DNA of 64,000 bases from Candidatus Saccharimonadales bacterium (GTDB lineage: Bacteria; Patescibacteriota; Saccharimonadia; Saccharimonadales; SZUA-47), in NCBI GenBank assembly GCA_038211855.1, contig JBBQVE010000005.1, positions 33 through 64,032 on the forward strand, written 5' to 3'. A model generated the notes under the pieces. The model was not told the origin of the DNA and did not search any database. It was given only the letters and a program-made list of their open reading frames with translations. Made by a program: the position numbers and the translations under genes. Numbering within the stretch: position 1 is the first letter of the stretch; each line of letters starts with the position of its first letter. Of this stretch, positions 1,261 to 10,411 are shown in pieces.

Positions 1261-4200
1261 ATGGTTCGTGCCTTCTTTGGGCATATTCTAAACAGTGTAA
1301 AGGCTGCGGTAAGGCAGCTTATTACTTTGTTTTCTGCAAAGACTACCCCTGTTGCGTATCTGAAGACGGCCACACTGATGGCCGTTTTTGTTATTCTGAC
1401 TACTGTTATTTCTGTCACAGGCGTGTTTTCTTATACGCGCGGGGGTGCGAGCGCAGCCGCGAACAGCAATCTCAACTTCCAGGCAAGACTGCTCAGTAAT
1501 ACCGGTAACCTCGTTGCTGATGGGTCGTACAATATCGAGTTTAAGATCTACAAGTCCGCTGCAGCTGGCACATCCGCCCAAAGCGTCTGTAGCTTGAACG
1601 CCAGCACCGACGACTGTTACTGGCTGGAAACCCGCAGCGGTGCCAATACCGTCACCGTGAAGAACGGCTACTTCAGCGTTAACCTTGGCTCAGTCACCGC
1701 CTTCGGCACAAGTATTCCATGGGACCAAGACCTCTGGATGAGTATGCGTATCGGCGGCATAGGCGCACCAAGCTGGGATACCGAAATGACGCCGCGCTTC
1801 AAACTCACAGCTGTGCCATACGCCTATCGCGCCGGCAAACTCCTCGACTCCACCAACACTAATGCATTCACTGCTGATGATCTGATCCAAAAAGCGCCGA
1901 CTGTCATCCAGACCCTCAACAGTACACTGGCCGCCATTCGCCTCAACCAACAAGGCACCGGCGGTCTTTTGCAGTTGCAGAAAAGTGGCAGCGACATCTT
2001 CACCATCGACAACGGTGGCTCGATTACTTCGGTCAGTACGGGGACGAACACGTTTAACCAGGGGGCGACGGGGCAGTTGAGTCTGGTGTCAGATTTGACT
2101 TCGGCCTCGCGCTCGACCTCGTCGTTTTCAATCACGCAGGCTGATAACGCGACAAATAGTCAGTCAGCACCCCTGTTGACGGTCACAAATAGTGATCTTA
2201 CTTCAACAGGCTCGCTTGCCACACTGACCCAGTCATCGACCGCTGCTGCCGACGCCCTGGTAATCTCGACGGCCAGCAATACTACGGCGATATCAGTCAC
2301 GACGCCGGCTGGCGGCACTGCCCTCACGACCGTTGGGTTAACTTCTGGTACGGCCATCAATGCGGACACGGTCACGACTGGTACGGCACTGTCAGATGCC
2401 GGCCTGACATCGGGCACGGGCCTGACGGTTGGCAGCGGCAACGCGATAACAACGGGGGTGGGCTTGCTCTACAATACTACGAGTAACGCCTTCACAACGG
2501 GGAAAGCCTTGAATGTAACAGGGTCCGCTGGTGCGATTACCGCCGATTTCAGCGGGGCTTATATCAACGTGAATCCAACCCGCACACTCACGGCGGCTGC
2601 GACTCGTACTGACTCGGGTAACTTCCTGAATCTGACGCGCGTAGATACGGTGAACAATGCGGGGGCCACGTACAACGTCATCGGTGCACTTGCCAATCTG
2701 CAAAGTACCTGTACGCAGACGGCAGGATCCTGCTCTGATAGCTCAAATATCCTGAACTTGAGCCAACAGTATGCCAATGCAACAGGGGCGGTGTTGAACG
2801 TGAGCGGAGCGGGTACAGGTAATCTTGCGGTGTTTAACGCGACAAATGCCGCAGCAAACGGCGTGTCAATCAATGTGCAATCAAACTCCAACACTAAGTA
2901 TGCCTTTAAGGTGACCAGTAACAACGGTGCCATCAATGGCTTGAATGTGCTTGCCGATGGTACGGTGCAGCTACCAATCCAAACCACTAATGGATTTGTG
3001 AAAACGAGTGGCGGCAATGGCTCGCTGACCGTCGCCACATCAATCGGGCTAGGCTCAACAGATGTCAGTGGCACGCTCGGCATTAGTAACGGCGGCACTA
3101 ATAGTACCGCGACGCCTACCGCCGGCGGCATTGCTTACGGTGCTGGCACCGCCTTTGCCTTCACGGGTGTAGGCATCGCGGGGCAGTGTTTGACCAGCAA
3201 TGCTGGCAGTGCGCCAACCTGGGCAAGTTGTGCTGGCACCGGTTCGGGTACAACTTTGCAGGCGGCCTTCAACAACGGCAATACGATTTTGACAACCGAC
3301 GCTCGGGACTTCAGCGTAACGCTTGCAAACACCACGACCAGTCCAAATGCCTTTATCAATATTGCAGCTGCATCAACCGGCCGCTTTGCTGTACAAAATA
3401 ACGGAGCCGACATATTTGGTGTGAACACAGCAAGTGGTGTGACGATCGGCGCCAACGCTGCCATCAATGGCAACACGATAATCGGCAGCGCTACTACCAA
3501 CCGTCTTACGCTTAACGCGCAGATCTTAGGCACAAACGCATTGGTCTTCCAGGGCGCCACCGATAATGCTTTTGCGACGACCTTTGCCATCACTGACCCA
3601 ACCGCCAACCGCACCATTACGGTGCCAGATGCCAGCGGCACGCTCGACTTTACAGACCTCGCACAAACCTTTAGTGCGTCCAAAACCTTCGGTGCCGGAC
3701 TGTCGATTACGAGCGGCCAAAGTTTGACGATAAATGCCAGTACCTTCACGAGTCTGACTGGCAATAACCTCACCAACACCGCTGGCGTCCTTGGCACCAC
3801 CAACAACCCAAGCTTTACGACGAGCGTCACGACACCGCTCCTCACCAGCTCGGCTGGCCTGACGATTAACAGCGGTAACAATACAATTTCAATCGGTGCC
3901 ACCAACACGGCCATCCAACGCATCGCGTCAGGTACCTTAACCTTCGACCTGAATGATGCTGGAGCTACGACCTTCGCCATCGACAACAGCGCAGCTGGCG
4001 CGGCAAGTATTAACTTGGTTGATGGTGGTCTTCAAACAGCTGGTACGAGCCGCCTGACAAATGCCGGCGTCTTGCAGAATATTACCGGGCTGACGATTGC
4101 TAGCGGCGGTGCAAGTGTCACAGGCGCTGCAACCTTCGTGAACGATGTTGCCATAAATGGCAATACCACTATCGGAAGCGCTACTACCAACCGTCTTACG

Positions 4201-5433
4201 CTTAAAGCGCAGATTCTTGGTGCCAATGCCGAAGTCTTCCAGGGTGCCACCGATAACGCCTTCACGACGACACTCAGCATCACCGACCCAACCGCCAATA
4301 ATACGATCATCGTGCCGGATGTCAGCGGTACGATTCTATTACTCGGCGCCTCGGCCATCCAGACAGATAGCTCAACTAATGTCTCAATCGGTATTAATAA
4401 GACGGGTGCGAGTGGAAATATTCTTACGTTGCAAAAGAATGGAACTAGCGTGTTTACTGTCGGGAACGACGGTGCAATAACTCATGCAGTCACTTCAACA
4501 GCGGCCTTAGTTGTTAACAATGGCACGGGTACTGATTACTTCACAATTAATACCAGCGGTGCACTTGTTCAAATTGGTTCAACCACTGCTGATGCAACGG
4601 GAGTTATGCTTGTGCTCGACACCAAAAATACAACTGGTGACCCTACAGGCCAAAACGGCGGAATGTACTACAACTCAGCTGTGCAATCATATCGTTGCTA
4701 CAGAGGTGTAAATGGTAATGCGAACGATGGTATATGGGAAAGCTGTGGCAAGAATCCAATTGACCACACCTGGAACCTAGAGGAAGACTTTATATCGGGC
4801 AACACGACTGCTTTTGCGATTGGCTCACTTGGCTGGAACCTGCAAACAATAACTACAGGTGTAACAGTGTCATATAATAATGCCGGAGTTCTGGCTCCGA
4901 CCTCTGATCGCCCGGGTATATTACGCTTACGAACAAACGGTAACGTAAGTCGCGGGTCGACTATGTCATTGGCTGGCTCAAGTCTCAGTCCGCTTCCTGT
5001 TGGAGCAGGCACAACAATACGAACAAGCGTCGCAAACTTCAAAAACGGAGGTGCAAATAGTCCAGTATTACGAATCGGTGAACATTCCGAAACAATATCA
5101 ACGACTGCGCCAACCGCAGGTGTATGGTGGGAAGCTGATACGGCTACAAATGCTAACTGGCGATACTGTTATGGGAGTGGTGCAGCGGCTTTGTGCGCAG
5201 TAAGTTCAGTCGCAATCGCCGACAACACGTGGTATCGACTAGAGATTCGTGTAGTAAGTACCACAGCCGTTGACTTCTTTATTAACGGTATAAAGACAAG
5301 TGTTACTGGTATAACACTTGATACCACAACGCAAACCGCTCCAGCATTGACTTGCTTTGCAGGTAGCGCTGTTCAACAAGATTGCTTTGAGGATTATTAT
5401 CAGATTTCAGGCGGCTCCGGTGCGGCTCGCTAA
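1261..5433 (+). CDS. giant (1390 aa) Thr/Ser/Ala/Gly/Asn-rich cell-surface protein with N-terminal TM anchor and C-terminal LamG/ConA-like domain
   Basis: Single uninterrupted 1390-codon ORF with an N-terminal hydrophobic helix (LMAVFVILTTVISVTGVF). The N-terminal module NLNFQARLLSNTGNLVADGSYNIEFKIY...YFSVNLGS...PRFKLTAVPYAYRA recurs in large bacterial fibre/surface proteins. The middle is beta-rich and low-complexity. The C-terminal part (WYRLEIRVVSTTAVDFFINGIK) looks like a jelly-roll lectin fold. Confidence 0.85.
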   Translation: MVRAFFGHILNSVKAAVRQLITLFSAKTTPVAYLKTATLMAVFVILTTVISVTGVFSYTRGGASAAANSNLNFQARLLSNTGNLVADGSYNIEFKIYKSAAAGTSAQSVCSLNASTDDCYWLETRSGANTVTVKNGYFSVNLGSVTAFGTSIPWDQDLWMSMRIGGIGAPSWDTEMTPRFKLTAVPYAYRAGKLLDSTNTNAFTADDLIQKAPTVIQTLNSTLAAIRLNQQGTGGLLQLQKSGSDIFTIDNGGSITSVSTGTNTFNQGATGQLSLVSDLTSASRSTSSFSITQADNATNSQSAPLLTVTNSDLTSTGSLATLTQSSTAAADALVISTASNTTAISVTTPAGGTALTTVGLTSGTAINADTVTTGTALSDAGLTSGTGLTVGSGNAITTGVGLLYNTTSNAFTTGKALNVTGSAGAITADFSGAYINVNPTRTLTAAATRTDSGNFLNLTRVDTVNNAGATYNVIGALANLQSTCTQTAGSCSDSSNILNLSQQYANATGAVLNVSGAGTGNLAVFNATNAAANGVSINVQSNSNTKYAFKVTSNNGAINGLNVLADGTVQLPIQTTNGFVKTSGGNGSLTVATSIGLGSTDVSGTLGISNGGTNSTATPTAGGIAYGAGTAFAFTGVGIAGQCLTSNAGSAPTWASCAGTGSGTTLQAAFNNGNTILTTDARDFSVTLANTTTSPNAFINIAAASTGRFAVQNNGADIFGVNTASGVTIGANAAINGNTIIGSATTNRLTLNAQILGTNALVFQGATDNAFATTFAITDPTANRTITVPDASGTLDFTDLAQTFSASKTFGAGLSITSGQSLTINASTFTSLTGNNLTNTAGVLGTTNNPSFTTSVTTPLLTSSAGLTINSGNNTISIGATNTAIQRIASGTLTFDLNDAGATTFAIDNSAAGAASINLVDGGLQTAGTSRLTNAGVLQNITGLTIASGGASVTGAATFVNDVAINGNTTIGSATTNRLTLKAQILGANAEVFQGATDNAFTTTLSITDPTANNTIIVPDVSGTILLLGASAIQTDSSTNVSIGINKTGASGNILTLQKNGTSVFTVGNDGAITHAVTSTAALVVNNGTGTDYFTINTSGALVQIGSTTADATGVMLVLDTKNTTGDPTGQNGGMYYNSAVQSYRCYRGVNGNANDGIWESCGKNPIDHTWNLEEDFISGNTTAFAIGSLGWNLQTITTGVTVSYNNAGVLAPTSDRPGILRLRTNGNVSRGSTMSLAGSSLSPLPVGAGTTIRTSVANFKNGGANSPVLRIGEHSETISTTAPTAGVWWEADTATNANWRYCYGSGAAALCAVSSVAIADNTWYRLEIRVVSTTAVDFFINGIKTSVTGITLDTTTQTAPALTCFAGSAVQQDCFEDYYQISGGSGAAR
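3460..3645 (+). repeat. internal direct repeat copy 1 (62 codons) inside the giant surface-protein gene
   Basis: AINGNTIIGSATTNRLTLNAQILGTNALVFQGATDNAFATTFAITDPTANRTITVPDASGTL. By hand alignment about 144/186 nt and 51/62 aa are identical to copy 2. A 29-nt run at 3487-3515 is identical to 4177-4205. Confidence 0.9.
4150..4335 (+). repeat. internal direct repeat copy 2, 690 nt (230 codons) downstream of copy 1
   Basis: AINGNTTIGSATTNRLTLKAQILGANAEVFQGATDNAFTTTLSITDPTANNTIIVPDVSGTI, in frame with copy 1. Confidence 0.9.
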
Positions 5434-5503
5434 ACGAAACTCTTCGTAGTCTAAAGCTGTCAGATTGTGTTACCCTTATATAAGCAAAAGAGGGTATCTA
5501 CAA

Positions 5504-6259
5504 GTGGCAGTGATTGCGGTAACAAATCAGAAGGGTGGCGTGGGCAAAACAACCACCACCATCAACCTAGGTGCTTATTTGGCACGCGCCGGCAAGACGG
5601 TGTTGATTGTTGATTTGGATCCGCAGGGCAACGCCAGTAGCGGACTTGCCATCAATAAAGCCGGACTTGAACACAAAACCATGTACGAACTATTGGGTGG
5701 CCAAGTGACTGCTGCTGACATTGTGTTACAGACTGCACAAAAAAACCTACACATCTTGCCGACTGGTGGCGAACTCGCGGCATCAGAAGTAGATTTGGTT
5801 GGCGTAGAGGCCAGGGAATTCGTCCTCAAAAAGGCACTTTCCGGACTGGCCTATGATTACATCCTCATTGACTGTCCACCGTCGTTATCTCTGCTTACGG
5901 TTAACGCATTAGTCGCTGCCGACAAAGTTCTGATTCCTGTACAAACTGAGTTCTATGCCCTAGAAGGGCTAGGGCAGTTAATCGACGTCGTGCAACGGGT
6001 GCGCGCGAGCATCAATCCGCACCTTGAATTACTCGGTATTGTCATGACGATGTATGATGCACGGACTTCGCTGTCTGGTAACGTACGTGATGAGCTGATC
6101 AAGCACTTCGGCGACAAGGTATTTACGACGCAAATACCACGGAATGTGCGTTTGGCAGAGGCACCAAGCTATGGTAAAACGATTGCCGAGCATGACAAAT
6201 GGAGTAAGGGTGCTAGAGCCTATAAAGGGTTGGCAAAGGAGGTGATGACACGTGCCTAA
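5504..6259 (+). CDS. parA: chromosome partitioning ATPase ParA/Soj
   Basis: Deviant Walker A KGGVGKTTTTINLG and ParA-family length. The start is probably GTG 5504 (VAVIAVTNQKGG); the ORF track start at TTG 5465 is the alternative. Confidence 0.93.
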   Translation: MAVIAVTNQKGGVGKTTTTINLGAYLARAGKTVLIVDLDPQGNASSGLAINKAGLEHKTMYELLGGQVTAADIVLQTAQKNLHILPTGGELAASEVDLVGVEAREFVLKKALSGLAYDYILIDCPPSLSLLTVNALVAADKVLIPVQTEFYALEGLGQLIDVVQRVRASINPHLELLGIVMTMYDARTSLSGNVRDELIKHFGDKVFTTQIPRNVRLAEAPSYGKTIAEHDKWSKGARAYKGLAKEVMTRA

Positions 6260-7121
6260 GAACACAGGACTCGGACGAGGCTTTGATGCGCTGATTCCAA
6301 CGAGCTTTGACGTTGGACTTCTAGAAGATGATTCAAATCGAATACAAAAATTATTCATAACCGAAATCACCCCTAATAGCGATCAGCCAAGAAAGTTGTT
6401 TGACGACGTTGCGCTTGAAGAACTTTCTGGGTCTATCCGTGAACATGGTGTATTGCAACCAATCATAGTTGTACAAAAAAGTGATAAGACCTTCCGCATT
6501 GTAGCCGGGGAACGCCGTTACCGAGCCAGCCAGTTGGCAGGGCTCGACAAGATCCCGGCAATTGTCCGTACGCTCGATGAACTGAAAGAGTTAGAACTGG
6601 CATTGGTTGAAAACGTTCAAAGGGTAGACCTGAGTGCGTTAGAACAGGCGGCTTCGATTGCGCGGCTGCAACAGCAGTTCAGTTTGGGGCTTTCGGATAT
6701 CGCCAAGAAACTCGGTAAGGCAGAGACCACGATTAGCAATATTGTGCGACTCTTACAATTGCCGCCCGATGCACAAGAAGCTTTGGCCCAAACTAAGATT
6801 TCTGAGGGCCATGCTCGTCAAGTTTTGGCTTTGAAGGATTCCCCGAAACAGCAGGCCGAGCTACTACGGCTGATTATTGCCAATGGGTGGTCGGTTCGCC
6901 AAGCCGAGCAATTTGTCACAGCCAGTAAAGCCGGTGCCAAAGATTCTGGCGAAGCCAAAAAACAGCTTGCCACCACCACGCCCGAAACTAAGAAACTTAG
7001 CACATACGTAGCTGCGCCCGTGCATATCAAACGGACAGCCAAGGGCGGTGAAATCCTCATCAAGTTTAAAGACGATGCCGATATGGCTCGAATTATAAAT
7101 ACAATTTCTGGAAGCAAGTAA
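6252..7121 (+). CDS. parB: chromosome partitioning protein ParB/Spo0J
   Basis: N-terminal GLGRGFDALIP, the ParB box IVAGERRYRA, and an HTH region. Overlaps the parA stop by 8 nt. Confidence 0.93.
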   Translation: MPKNTGLGRGFDALIPTSFDVGLLEDDSNRIQKLFITEITPNSDQPRKLFDDVALEELSGSIREHGVLQPIIVVQKSDKTFRIVAGERRYRASQLAGLDKIPAIVRTLDELKELELALVENVQRVDLSALEQAASIARLQQQFSLGLSDIAKKLGKAETTISNIVRLLQLPPDAQEALAQTKISEGHARQVLALKDSPKQQAELLRLIIANGWSVRQAEQFVTASKAGAKDSGEAKKQLATTTPETKKLSTYVAAPVHIKRTAKGGEILIKFKDDADMARIINTISGSK

Positions 7122-7558
7122 TGGACGGCGTTGATCCGCGGCTGAGCGATATTAATGACTGTTTGTATCGTGTCGCAGCGAAGGCGATTATCGTACATGA
7201 TCACAAAATCCTGACAGTCAAAGATAACGGTGATGCCCATTGGGGACTACCCGGTGGTGGTATTGATTATGGCGAGGAAGTGAAAAGTGCACTGTGTCGT
7301 GAACTGTTAGAAGAAATTTGTGTTGGCATGGAAGATATTCTCACTATAGAAGGGCCGGTGCTGATTTCGACAGATGGCATTGTGAATGGCGTGCCGCGTA
7401 TTAACATCTGTTACAAAATAGAAGTAAGGTTTGGAGCAGTAGCGCGGGGTAGTGATGTGGACGATATCCACTGGCAGACTGCAGATGAACTGGCTGATCT
7501 CCCTATGAGTCCGTCGATCACCGAGCACAAGACAGAACTTACGGCCTTTCTAAAGTAG
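7121..7558 (+). CDS. NUDIX hydrolase
   Basis: Nudix box GLPGGGIDYGEEVKSALCRELLEEICV (GX5EX7REUXEEXGU). The start overlaps the parB stop (TAATG). Confidence 0.85.
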   Translation: MDGVDPRLSDINDCLYRVAAKAIIVHDHKILTVKDNGDAHWGLPGGGIDYGEEVKSALCRELLEEICVGMEDILTIEGPVLISTDGIVNGVPRINICYKIEVRFGAVARGSDVDDIHWQTADELADLPMSPSITEHKTELTAFLK

Positions 7559-7614
7559 CAAAAAGTGGGGCGGGGATTTTACATATTTTGCTAGAAAATC
7601 TTAAAAAAGCAAAT

Positions 7615-7623
7615 TGTGGATAA
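7615..7623 (-). promoter_or_regulatory. perfect DnaA-box 9-mer (TGTGGATAA, the reverse complement of TTATCCACA)
   Basis: Exact match to the consensus, inside a visibly AT-rich 294-bp spacer between convergent genes. It is a single copy only; TTTTCCAAA nearby has 2 mismatches. Confidence 0.35.
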
Positions 7624-7852
7624 CTAAGTTTTTAAATCGGGGGACTCGTCTGTATTTTTTGAGATCTCACAATGTACGTATGTAAGTCTTAAATTATTCA
7701 AAAAATAAATTCTCAAATAGAAATATAAACCCCCTACTTCCCTTTTTTATTGCTTTTTCCAAAAGCTGAATTCCCTCTTAAAATTCATAAAATTTGGGAA
7801 AGGGAATACTTAAAAACACAATTTTATAATTAGCAAATATATGATGTTAAAT

Positions 7853-8542
7853 TTAAAAGTATAGAGGCAAGGCGTTGACACGCATAGCTTCATAGGTGGA
7901 TACAGCCTGAGCGGCCTCACTATTACCATCATCGGCTGCGAGCTGTGCAAAAGGATAAATATGCGCTTCAGCTATTGCTGCGATGCGGCCAAGGACTGCC
8001 GGTAAAACTTCAGCCTCATGTTGGTATGGATAAGGGTCGCCGAAATCATGATATTCCCTATGGCGGTTTATTGGCTGAGCCTCTCTCGGTTCAACTGAGT
8101 CCCCAGCATGACCTATATAAAGAAACCAGCCACGGATATACTTTTTGTCCCATCTGCATGGTCGACAGCCGTGAATAGCATAAGGCATTTCTCTAGTGTC
8201 TTCGATTTCACGAAGTCTATCAGGTTCAGGGCCATGAGCAGAGATAACCGGTAAAAGAAAATCAGTACGTTTCACCTGTGCCTCGACGGCATCTTCGCCG
8301 CAGAATTTCTCAGCATCTTCATCAGGTTTGTCGTTGGATCCCGCTACGGTTTCAATAGTTAAATCTAGATGATTTAACACGACACCAGCTATACCGACGC
8401 GAAAGCCGCTGTAATGGTTGCTGTTTCTCATCGCCTCACGCGAGGCGTTCGCAAGCCTTAGTCGAAGCACCTCAAAGTTGAGTGCAGCACTAAATGGTAT
8501 GGTTTCGCGAGAAAGATAACTTCCACTACCGGGTTGAGACAT
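7853..8542 (-). CDS. divergent cytidine-deaminase-fold protein (CDA-like zinc deaminase)
   Basis: HYSGFRVGIAGVVL, FCGEDAVEA and HGCRPCRW match by eye the tetrameric-CDA signature YSxFxVGAA / CAE / PCxxCRQ (three Cys zinc ligands plus a catalytic Glu). There is an insertion of about 20 aa between the motifs and a C-terminal extension of about 90 aa. Confidence 0.55.
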   Translation of the reverse strand: MSQPGSGSYLSRETIPFSAALNFEVLRLRLANASREAMRNSNHYSGFRVGIAGVVLNHLDLTIETVAGSNDKPDEDAEKFCGEDAVEAQVKRTDFLLPVISAHGPEPDRLREIEDTREMPYAIHGCRPCRWDKKYIRGWFLYIGHAGDSVEPREAQPINRHREYHDFGDPYPYQHEAEVLPAVLGRIAAIAEAHIYPFAQLAADDGNSEAAQAVSTYEAMRVNALPLYF

Positions 8543-8583
8543 TGGATAGTATTATAACATTTAAATTATAAAATTAATAATGC

Positions 8584-8952
8584 TTATATAGTTTTAATTA
8601 CGAGCGCTTGGACGAGCTTCTTGATTTGGTCACGCGGCGCACGAACACCTTTGAGTGGCACGTCAGCCAAATCCTGGATTTTCCAATATTCATATTTCGG
8701 ACTGCTCGTGAGCCAATCAGGCGTGTCAGCTGCGTTGGTTAGTCGCTTGGGATAATTATTGGAGATGTCTGTCCCATCTTCTTTCATGGCTTCGACGATA
8801 CCAATAGCACCCGGAAAATCACCAATGCGGGTGTTTGGATCTGAGGCTACCGTTCCAGCGGAATCGGTCTCATCATCTGACATGCTCTTAAAATATTCCA
8901 TCACTGACTGGCTACGATCAACGTTCCCATGACACACAAATAATACTTTCAT
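8584..8952 (-). CDS. low-molecular-weight phosphotyrosine phosphatase / ArsC-like
   Basis: N-terminal P-loop VCHGNVDRS (CX5R-S) at residues 7-14; size 122 aa. Confidence 0.8.
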   Translation of the reverse strand: MKVLFVCHGNVDRSQSVMEYFKSMSDDETDSAGTVASDPNTRIGDFPGAIGIVEAMKEDGTDISNNYPKRLTNAADTPDWLTSSPKYEYWKIQDLADVPLKGVRAPRDQIKKLVQALVIKTI

Positions 8953-8956
8953 GCAT

Positions 8957-9727
8957 TTATGATACCTTAAAGCGGGCGAGTAATGGTGCGTGGTCGGAAG
9001 GCGTGCTGTCTAATACTTTAAACTGAAGCAATTCCGTCGATGTTTCTTTGGTCCAAAAAATCTTGTCGAGGTTGCAGCGCATCCATTTTGACATGCCGCC
9101 ATTATGCGACCAGGTTGGATTTTTAAGTGTGCCACTACGGTGATGGAAGCGGTCTGCTTCACGGCTCGCAAAAGACATCGGCATCAGATTGAATTCGTTA
9201 AAATCACCCCCTAAAATTAATTGTTTGTAGCGGGGTTCGGCAACAACTTGGCGAAGGGCTCTTTGATTACGCCAGTGCTCGCGTAGGGCGACCGGCTTAA
9301 GTGCAAGTGGGTGCGCGACCATGACATTGAGAGATTTTTTAGCCGACAGATGTATGGTGGTGCCGATGGCCTTTACTGAGTGGCCGGGGTACCCGCGCCA
9401 ATTGGCGAATTTATCGTCCCCCATACTGATTTCTTGTGTGTTACTGACCGGCAATTTAGAAACAAATGCCGCACCGATGCCCCAAGTATCGTCAAGCGGG
9501 CTGGAGTAGGCAAAATGTTGGAAGGTGTAGCCACGGCTTTGAAGATGTCCGAGCACAAAGAGTCGCTTTTTGGTGTCTTGGAGTACCTCGTTGAGGCCAA
9601 TAAAATCCGGTGTATACGTGTCGATAATCTGGTCAAGTTTTTTGAGGAGTCGTTTAGCATGGGGACTTTCTTGGCCCTCGCGCTGGCTGTTGAGCCAGAT
9701 ATTCCAAAAAACAATCGTAAATTCCAT
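8957..9727 (-). CDS. endonuclease/exonuclease/phosphatase (EEP) family protein
   Basis: EEP motifs: N-terminal WNIW, LNEV, GGDFNEF, and C-terminal SDHAPLLARF. Confidence 0.8.
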   Translation of the reverse strand: MEFTIVFWNIWLNSQREGQESPHAKRLLKKLDQIIDTYTPDFIGLNEVLQDTKKRLFVLGHLQSRGYTFQHFAYSSPLDDTWGIGAAFVSKLPVSNTQEISMGDDKFANWRGYPGHSVKAIGTTIHLSAKKSLNVMVAHPLALKPVALREHWRNQRALRQVVAEPRYKQLILGGDFNEFNLMPMSFASREADRFHHRSGTLKNPTWSHNGGMSKWMRCNLDKIFWTKETSTELLQFKVLDSTPSDHAPLLARFKVS

Positions 9728-9748
9728 AAAGGGTATCTCAATTATCTG

Positions 9749-10411
9749 TTAAAAAGTGCGGGTTTGTTTGATTGGCAGAAAGCGGAAGGCAGCGGTGCCG
9801 ACGATGTCTTTGGTGTCGATTGGGCCGAATGTGCGGGAATCAAGTGAGTTGTCACGGTTGTCGCCGCAGACGAAGATCTGGCCTTTGCCGACGGTCCACT
9901 CGCCATCGATGCCGGTGTGTACAATCACGTTGCCGTAGGCGCCTTGTTTGTCGGGCTGAAAGCCTTCAGGGTGGGCATCGTTATACACGGTCAGAATGCT
10001 CTCTTTGACGACCACGCGCTCACCAGGCAAGGCAATGACGCGCTTGATGAGTTGCTTGCTGCCCTCGCTGTTATCAAGCAATAAATCGGCCTTCGTAAAG
10101 ATGACGATTTGGCCGCGCATTGGCATAAACGTCTTGTGCTCGATTTTGGCCCAGGTACGCGGTGCTTTGACGACAATCAGACGGTCACCGTTGTGTAAGG
10201 TGGTCTGCATGCTCGGACCGAACACTTCGTAGCTCTGAAACAAAAAACTCGTGATTAACAAGGCTACCAGCGGCGCAGCAATCAGGACGGCAATTGTAGC
10301 AACGATATTCTTAAAACCGTCGTTGTGTTTTGAAGCCTTTTTCTTGGGTGCCTCTGTTTCTGGCTCTGGAGCAGAAGAAACAGGGGTCATTTCGGTCACA
10401 TCTGGTTGCAT
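9749..10411 (-). CDS. lepB: signal peptidase I
   Basis: N-terminal TM helix, Ser box GPSMQTTL, and GDNRDNSLDSR box E. Confidence 0.92.
   Translation of the reverse strand: MQPDVTEMTPVSSAPEPETEAPKKKASKHNDGFKNIVATIAVLIAAPLVALLITSFLFQSYEVFGPSMQTTLHNGDRLIVVKAPRTWAKIEHKTFMPMRGQIVIFTKADLLLDNSEGSKQLIKRVIALPGERVVVKESILTVYNDAHPEGFQPDKQGAYGNVIVHTGIDGEWTVGKGQIFVCGDNRDNSLDSRTFGPIDTKDIVGTAAFRFLPIKQTRTF

Follow-up and report, generated by a model that had tools for sequence, protein, structure and literature searches.

A rare, divergent cytidine-deaminase-like protein encoded in a lineage-specific insert of a Saccharimonadales genome

Gene X and its anatomy

Here we have analysed a minus-strand gene in a 64,000-nt stretch of a Candidatus Saccharimonadales bacterium genome (GenBank assembly GCA_038211855.1, contig JBBQVE010000005.1; this whole stretch is called the window). 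Sequence comparison and structure prediction together place its 229-aa product, which we label X, as a divergent branch of the CDD/CDA clade of cytidine deaminases (CDAs) with its catalytic site residues intact. The open reading frame (ORF) extends for just 3 codons 5' of the ATG, and the translation carries the segments YSGFRVGIAG (from Y44), CGE (C81 to E83) and CRPCR (C126, C129 and R130); gene and motifs are as an initial annotation of this DNA, made from the sequence alone, had described them. The AT-rich flanks remarked on there are likewise present, as a 294-nt downstream intergenic region of ~30% GC and a 41-nt spacer upstream. The GC content of the gene (0.48) is the same as that of the window, and recent horizontal transfer was rejected on this compositional ground.

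An exhaustive phmmer (HMMER) search of 1.84 billion cluster representatives returns seven distant relatives of X (E 4.7e-8 to 2.6e-4), 201-254 aa long and 27-36% identical to it in the matched stretches (~21-28% alignment-wide). X and these relatives constitute the family considered here (8 sequence clusters), and the alignment of the eight sequences, A1, contains 14 invariant columns, including Y44, N70, C81, E83, C126 and C129, which are present in all eight members. An AlphaFold2 model of X computed on A1 is confident (predicted local distance difference test score, pLDDT, 87.6; predicted template modelling score, pTM, 0.86), whereas a single-sequence model is poor (pLDDT 38.8). From alignment and model together, the gene and its parts are as follows.

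7853..8542, minus strand: X coding sequence, 229 aa, ATG start, stop codon at 7853-7855 (ORF list and sequence)
8551..8559, minus strand: extended -10 element TGtTATAAT, the TATAAT (8556..8551) ending 8 nt before the ATG and the TG at 8559-8558
8477..8542, minus strand: N-terminal extension, aa 1-22, with an extra beta-strand (10-15) and family-invariant R12 (A1, AlphaFold2 model)
8042..8476, minus strand: deaminase core, aa 23-167 (AlphaFold2 secondary structure, Foldseek, profile and hhalign alignments)
8327..8335, minus strand: N70-D71-K72, counterpart of the N-x-E dyad of CDAs for the ribose 3'-OH (A1, profile, hhalign)
8294..8302, minus strand: C81-G82-E83, where helix 2 begins: the first zinc ligand and the catalytic Glu, paired with C53/E55 of B. 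subtilis CDA
8183..8221, minus strand: family-specific insertion of ~13 aa (aa 108-120) between beta3 and the CxxC helix (alignment gaps, A1)
8153..8167, minus strand: C126-R-P-C129-R130 (CxxCR), zinc ligands 2 and 3 at the start of helix 3, aligned to C86/C89/R90
7856..8041, minus strand: C-terminal extension, aa 168-229, a loop with invariant Y171-P172 followed by helices 176-204 and 208-223 (A1, model)

The ways in which X had been said to differ from canonical CDAs need partial revision. Of the three anatomical differences proposed, two were mis-sized and the third is no insertion, and an N-terminal extension of ~20 aa was overlooked. Specifically, the segment DKPDEDAEK, read as an acidic insertion, lies in an N70-to-C81 interval of 11 residues that aligns without gaps to the M. 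leprae and B. subtilis CDAs, and it replaces the usual x-E-N-A-x-Y. An insertion before the CxxC does exist, but it measures 12-13 aa by the alignment gaps against CDAs rather than ~20 aa; this segment belongs to the family-conserved RGP..LR.IEG.R, and model confidence is lower across residues 111-140 (pLDDT 62-80). The C-terminal extension is also real, being without counterpart in solved CDAs, but amounts to ~60 aa and not ~90 aa, because beta4, beta5 and helix 4 (model residues 141-167), fold elements still required after the CxxC, belong to the core.

Placement in the CDD/CDA clade

Queried alone, X has no matches in Pfam (E<=1), NCBIfam, PADLOC, PHROGs or the PDB sequences (phmmer). The assignment is made through the family, and we call X a divergent CDD/CDA branch because the A1 profile, hhalign, the PF00383 match of one relative and the AlphaFold2 model with Foldseek all point to CDAs. 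Searched against 177,635 PDB sequences, the A1 profile gives 14 matches at E<=10, of which 12 are cytidine deaminases and none is a deaminase of another kind; the top match is M. leprae Cdd (3R2N, E 0.0055). Alignment of A1 to B. subtilis Cdd by hhalign (probability 93.3%, E 2.8e-7) pairs Y44, F47, N70, C81, E83, C126, C129 and R130 of X with Y21, F24, N42, C53, E55, C86, C89 and R90; the numbering of the B. subtilis sequence used reproduces the published F24/N42/E44/C53/E55/C86/C89. Furthermore, relative P0007 scores 29.2 bits on PF00383 (dCMP_cyt_deam_1), above the gathering cut-off of 25 bits, with P0003 (19.2) and P0004 (15.0) below it and no match in X (E<=1) or in four other members. The divergent, extended CDA fold with a Cys-Cys-Cys zinc site and catalytic Glu that had been proposed is supported by these four independent lines.

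The predicted structure agrees. Its elements run helix1-beta1-beta2-helix2 (from C81)-beta3-helix3 (from C126)-beta4-beta5-helix4, and beta4 (141-146) and beta5 (152-157) form an antiparallel hairpin across a 5-residue turn, a helix following only after strand 5. In a Foldseek comparison of the model with the PDB, the top 29 matches (E<0.05) are all homotetramer-type cytidine deaminases (T-CDAs), from yeast (CDD1), mouse, human, B. subtilis, mycobacteria, Burkholderia and Streptomyces; template modelling scores for these are 0.58-0.69 normalised to the target and ~0.4 normalised to the query, with only ~135-142 columns covered, and the N- and C-terminal additions of X find no counterpart in them. 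The next matches, APOBEC3F and APOBEC3H among them, have E>1.

Deaminases whose strands 4 and 5 run antiparallel make up the C-terminal hairpin division of the superfamily, within which the CDD/CDA clade is marked by C[H]AE at the start of helix 2, PCxxCR at the start of helix 3 and a Glu ending strand 5 (Iyer et al. 2011, PMC3239186). In the X model, itself a prediction, strands 4 and 5 are antiparallel with no helix between them. The first motif appears as C-[AGS]-E across the family, with Cys and Glu invariant, a Gly in mid-motif rather than Ala in X, and a model helix at 82-89. Of the second, the CxxC is invariant, the Arg that follows is kept in 6/8 members (X included) and the preceding Pro in 3/8, X having Gly there, with a model helix at 127-131. 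An invariant E154 lies inside predicted strand 5 (152-157), and at the Glu position of 'ELLP', matched by eye beyond the extent of the hhalign alignment, most relatives have E or Q and X has R or H. The synapomorphies listed for the clade (Iyer et al. 2011, PMC3239186) are largely present in the X family.

One departure concerns the sugar-binding site. In B. subtilis CDA, N42 and E44 bind the ribose 3'-OH. The Asn is kept throughout the X family (N70, invariant), and the Glu position is occupied by K72 in X and by Lys, Arg or Ser in the relatives; no family member has the Arg found after CAE in CDAs.

Compared with the reference T-CDAs (B. subtilis Cdd, 1JTK; yeast CDD1, 1R5T; mouse and human CDA, 1ZAB and 1MQ0; mycobacterial Cdd, 3MPZ and 3R2N), which are the sole significant structural and profile matches of the family, X shares the core fold with its beta4-beta5 hairpin, the Cys-Cys-Cys zinc site, C-x-E on helix 2, CxxCR on helix 3, the aromatic Y-x-x-F-x-V-G segment, the invariant ribose-position Asn and the same 11-residue spacing from that Asn to the first Cys. 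It differs in length (229 aa vs ~130-140 aa), with sequence identity of 12-24%; in adding an N-terminal strand, the conserved 13-aa insertion before the CxxC and a ~60-aa two-helix C-terminus carrying Y171-P172; and in having Lys for the ribose Glu, no Arg after the CxE and no Pro before the CxxC. X moreover reaches no curated family threshold, changes very fast and is an accessory gene. Two other groups invite comparison. The LmjF36.5940-like branch (PF14421) is likewise a divergent CDD/CDA derivative of ~200 aa, and P0004 matches it faintly (E 0.21, insignificant, in the CxxC region only); it comes mostly from eukaryotes, with Bdellovibrio in addition, and carries fused CCCH or Rossmann domains (PMC3239186), none of which X has. 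The helix-4 division (dCMP deaminase, TadA, APOBEC) shares zinc-dependent deamination of cytosine (or adenine) and the [HC]xE...CxxC pattern, and PF00383 also covers dCMP deaminase, but in its members a helix separates strands 4 and 5 and the motif is mostly HxE, against the tight hairpin of the model and the CxE of X (PMC3239186), and its APOBEC structures appear among the 50 Foldseek matches listed only at E>1.

The family is a rare branch, with 8 clusters among the 1.84 billion representatives, and no curated family model is reachable from X itself. A word-indexed search of 5.8 billion proteins with X returns X alone (the identical protein recorded once), and with the family alignment it returns three members, all already known. 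No close relatives turned up in scans of GTDB genomes, JGI metagenomes and IMG/VR; a metagenome scan with the sub-alignment of P0003-5 found nothing; and there are no viral relatives in PHROGs or IMG/VR and no significant match among BFVD viral structures. A zinc-motif scan of the window shows no second deaminase or paralogue, and the family profile run over the window and all loci finds no further member. Just two genomes carrying the family could be placed, both Saccharibacteria-type, and a literature search on Saccharibacteria with cytidine deaminase, nucleotide salvage or leaderless mRNA found nothing relevant. What is new in the X branch is its own N- and C-terminal elements, its altered sugar-binding position and a divergence far above that of its neighbours; the fold and chemistry are already known. 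Being without a Pfam or NCBIfam match, X is missed by annotation pipelines and left as a hypothetical protein.

An accessory insert with the fast-diverging X and its putative leaderless-type promoter

The genes around X were compared with 80 loci (L016-L095) retrieved with the window's ParB, nearly all labelled as Saccharibacteria/Saccharimonadales metagenome-assembled genomes (closest 78% identity), and with L009, a metagenomic relative whose neighbour proteins are 85-95% identical to those of the window. This comparison sets X within an insert, listed here with the flanking LepB.

7122..9748: lineage-specific insert between ParB (ends 7121) and LepB (stop 9749), from the synteny comparison
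7121..7558, plus strand: NUDIX hydrolase (MutT-like), convergent with X (PF00293, 2.9e-10; NCBIfam matches all sub-cut-off)
7559..7852: AT-rich intergenic region of 294 nt between the convergent NUDIX gene and X, ~75% column identity with L009
8584..8952, minus strand: LMW-PTP/ArsC-like gene, upstream of X (PF01451, 5.9e-05)
8957..9727, minus strand: EEP-family gene, upstream of X (PF03372, 2.6e-13)
stop at 9749, minus strand: LepB (PF10502, 9.4e-38)

The lepB-EEP-LMW-PTP string previously noted upstream of X is thus supported by Pfam for each gene. The LMW-PTP-like protein (122 aa) matches only positions 1-72 of the 144 in PF01451, alongside weak arsenate-reductase matches; it keeps the C-x5-R-S loop (CHGNVDRS) and may be without the usual C-terminal part of the fold.

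In the 80 species the genes run ParA-ParB-LepB(-), with LCP and/or a 285-aa membrane protein usually coming next; ParB and LepB are almost always adjacent, and no species (0/80) has an X-family member within 10 kb of ParB/LepB. NUDIX and X lie between these genes only in the window and in L009, where the insert consists of NUDIX and X without LMW-PTP and EEP; in this comparison the latter two are unique to the window genome. Different cargo occupies the same junction in L073 (5789-6782), a receiver-domain-like ORF (judged by eye) with a 170-aa ORF of unknown kind, and in L070 the junction (5782-6517) holds a 740-nt stretch without a clear gene or Rfam match. The ParB|LepB junction resembles a minor insertion hotspot.

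X is the fastest-evolving gene of the 16-kb syntenic block shared with L009. DNA alignment of the two genomes (77-79%) runs as far as the 3' part of NUDIX, is lost across X and resumes from LepB onward, and the two X proteins are 29.5% identical over 200 aligned codons. Nonsynonymous divergence (dN, Nei-Gojobori) is 0.82 for X, 0.23 for NUDIX and 0.03-0.09 for ParA, ParB, LepB, LCP and the membrane protein; synonymous divergence (dS) is saturated in all compared genes, so dN/dS is unreadable and no positive selection is shown for X. The window and L009 proteins are reciprocal best matches within the family, marginally (49 bits vs 44-46). Two readings of this gap remain: X may have hyper-diverged in situ, or a distant allele may have replaced the X segment along with EEP and LMW-PTP.

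The 294-nt spacer 3' of X behaves differently, being ~75% identical to L009 8658-9002 with several perfect blocks of 10-20 nt, even though synonymous sites in its flanking genes have reached saturation and X cannot be aligned as DNA. It has no credible or conserved small ORF, no Rfam match and no copy in the other loci, and its folding z-scores (-1.1 and -0.5) are not significant; with these results its identification as a known RNA was dropped. The spacer may hold terminators, regulatory sites or an undescribed small RNA.

Elsewhere the family occupies other settings. P0005 and P0007 lie between a divergent thermonuclease (SNase) gene and a convergent cob(I)alamin adenosyltransferase (CobA) gene, with TerC intervening for P0005, close to glutaredoxin and the ATP synthase operon. 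L008, L011, L012 and L013 all have the thermonuclease as divergent neighbour, with cobalamin adenosyltransferase and glutaredoxin close by; in L010 the adenosyltransferase is present and the contig ends before the upstream gene, and the short contig of P0003 shows the convergent adenosyltransferase only. Members of this SNase-context class are 28-42% identical, compared with 62-68% for CobA and 56% for the nuclease, the same tendency as with L009 in weaker form. P0008 (six loci) is preceded by LigA and then, immediately upstream, by a Ham1/RdgB XTP/dITP diphosphatase, with a tRNA-Ala after it; in L002 this tRNA-Ala (GGC) lies at 6302-6377 on the plus strand, where it accounts for the long downstream gap and is unrelated to the spacer of the window. 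P0004 is preceded by a polysaccharide deacetylase (L015), and P0006 sits on a 955-nt contig without context. In 3/4 informative contexts, then, the immediate neighbour is a nucleoside triphosphate (NTP) pyrophosphatase or a nuclease.

As had been pointed out, a perfect TATAAT stands 8 nt before the ATG of X; it is preceded by a TG, giving an extended -10 element (TGnTATAAT), and a perfect TATAAT occurs 6-9 nt ahead of the ATG in 5/8 family loci. A generic -35/-10 scan of the window does not list it. It is plausible from this arrangement that X is transcribed independently as a leaderless or near-leaderless mRNA, in line with the suggestion of a promoter of its own; the placement is not special to X, however, because it is common in the genome. 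Indeed, 9/58 long ORFs of the window have a -10-like box (>=5/6 TATAAT positions) whose end lies 5-9 nt ahead of the first start codon, vs 1.3% of random positions (for example near 8952, 12141, 22472, 38688, 39504, 45236, 48013 and 59040). The LMW-PTP gene has a box similar to that of X, and only 11/58 long ORFs have a Shine-Dalgarno-like motif. This pattern suggests that leaderless mRNAs are frequent in this organism.

Candidate functions and the surrounding block

On balance X is probably, by a modest margin over even, a cytoplasmic zinc deaminase of free cytosine nucleosides or nucleotides acting in pyrimidine salvage or pool sanitation, a reading we adopt because the similarity is solely to nucleoside CDAs, the architecture is stand-alone and the neighbour genes fit. 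By analogy with the family, C81, C126 and C129 would hold a zinc that activates water, E83 would shuttle a proton, F47 would stack on the pyrimidine ring and N70 would contact the sugar, giving the matching uracil compound and ammonia. Expression would begin at the extended -10 promoter of X, the mRNA probably being leaderless or nearly so. The protein is expected in the cytoplasm because it has no signal peptide or delivery domain, and its output would feed the U/T branch of pyrimidine salvage or clean the nucleotide pool. Saccharibacteria-like organisms are believed unable to make nucleotides de novo, and a salvage role would fit. Judging by the Lys in place of the ribose Glu, the 13-aa insertion beside the active site and the extra segments at both termini, the substrate or oligomeric state may differ from that of a textbook cytidine deaminase; a phosphorylated substrate would be one example. 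If salvage is indeed the role, some ultra-small host-dependent bacteria would be rebalancing their pyrimidine pools with a remodelled cytidine deaminase.

Several observations weigh against this assignment. With the ribose 3'-OH Glu (E44 in B. subtilis) replaced by Lys, Arg or Ser and the Arg after CAE missing, plain cytidine may not be the substrate of X. The gene is an accessory insert absent from the 80 related species, and its nonsynonymous divergence is ~10-30x that of its neighbours (dN 0.82 vs 0.03-0.09), a combination more usual in conflict-related genes than in core metabolism. The neighbourhood theme, moreover, holds in only three of the four informative contexts, the upstream gene in L015 being a polysaccharide deacetylase. 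Finally, X itself has no family match, so that its link to CDAs is transitive, by way of seven distant relatives and a model built on eight sequences.

A chance motif match on another fold has in its favour that X alone matches nothing in Pfam, NCBIfam or the PDB and that its single-sequence model reaches a pLDDT of only 38.8; we find this scarcely credible, since the profile, Foldseek, hhalign and PF00383 lines all converge on CDA and helices 2 and 3 begin at the motifs, exactly as in the deaminase fold. That X is a decaying or non-catalytic relic, which would account for its extreme divergence, would also come as a considerable surprise: its very high dN relative to its neighbours, its rarity and its accessory status are what one might expect of a relic, but full-length ORFs (201-254 aa) are found in 8/8 clusters, the 14 invariant columns include all zinc and catalytic residues, the window and L009 copies are both intact despite saturated dS, and the model is compact and confident. 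Cultivated Saccharibacteria live on Actinobacteria, and X might, like blasticidin S deaminase, deaminate a cytosine-containing secondary metabolite, which would shield an epibiont from nucleoside antibiotics of its actinobacterial hosts or neighbours. Blasticidin S deaminases derive from the CDD/CDA clade and share its motifs and synapomorphies with X (PMC3239186), and they are small, cytoplasmic and stand-alone with a cytosine nucleoside analogue as substrate, while X is accessory, lineage-restricted and altered at its sugar-binding position. Unlike X, however, they lack extensions; none is among the 50 Foldseek matches listed, compared with 29 CDA chains, or among the profile matches, no resistance or biosynthetic genes lie nearby, and positive evidence is absent, which makes such a role very unlikely.

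A more serious alternative, though still an unlikely one, is that X is a conflict-driven deaminase of cytosine in polynucleotides (ssDNA, dsDNA, RNA or tRNA), serving as a mutator, an anti-phage or host-directed effector, or an editor. X is the fastest-evolving gene of its block (29.5% vs 85-95%) and nevertheless keeps all catalytic residues, it is accessory at a junction otherwise uninterrupted in 80 species, and it has a basic residue for the ribose-binding Glu and a conserved insertion beside the active site; typically, deaminase clades that evolve fast consist of nucleic-acid mutators or toxins (Iyer et al. 2011, PMC3239186), a generalisation that X would fit. Toxin deaminases also share the structural division of X, its fast evolution and a patchy distribution. 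They are, however, C-terminal parts of large delivery proteins with an immunity gene behind them, whereas 8/8 members of the X family are stand-alone proteins of 201-254 aa whose start lies ~40 residues ahead of the core, X itself starting from its own ATG with no N-terminal trafficking domain, and no family member has a toxin-deaminase Pfam match at E<=10. Likewise, the structural and profile neighbours are all nucleoside CDAs, with APOBEC structures at E>1 and no toxin deaminase among the 50 Foldseek matches listed. Neither X nor the LMW-PTP-like or EEP-family protein matched anything in PADLOC-DB at E<=1. The check for a small immunity-like ORF at homologous loci, proposed with the idea of a toxin or editing enzyme, also came back empty: no locus shows an adjacent immunity-sized ORF or a delivery domain, no ORF in the downstream gap of the window is conserved with L009, and elsewhere the next feature 3' of the family gene is a convergent CobA or TerC gene or tRNA-Ala; a toxin-immunity pair was rejected on these grounds. 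With dS saturated, positive selection is not demonstrated, and the SNase-X-CobA order persists in genomes whose neighbouring genes share only 56-68% identity, a sign of long vertical inheritance. X sits in stable housekeeping contexts, and the earlier suggestion of a toxin or editing enzyme finds no support, although very fast evolution and the loss of one ribose-binding residue leave it some probability.

A broader proposal, that X and its seven relatives, seen here in Saccharibacteria-type genomes, form an undescribed clade of compact stand-alone CDA-fold enzymes acting on phosphorylated or polymeric cytosine (ssDNA or RNA, nucleotides) and not on nucleosides, with their extreme divergence among otherwise nearly identical genomes driven by an arms race with phage or host, we regard as distinctly unlikely. 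Were the substrate a polymer, a small, monomer-sized scaffold would be added to the nucleic-acid deaminases, along with a new natural source of them. Under any reading, whether free-nucleoside deaminase or otherwise, the locus presents a testable case of localised hyper-divergence in a reduced genome, at 29.5% identity vs 85-95% for its block neighbours.

Two further observations concern the same block. A 1390-aa protein rich in Thr, Ser, Ala, Gly and Asn, with an N-terminal hydrophobic segment (1261-5433, plus strand), is encoded upstream of ParA and probably belongs to the cell surface; the counterpart in L009 has 1713 aa and is ~48% identical in the alignable part, making it the second fastest-evolving in the syntenic block. 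The ParA ORF itself (5465-6259, plus strand) gives 264 aa when read from a TTG, but gene callers give 251 aa for the same sequence (L001) and for L009, so that the true start is probably the ATG at 5504.

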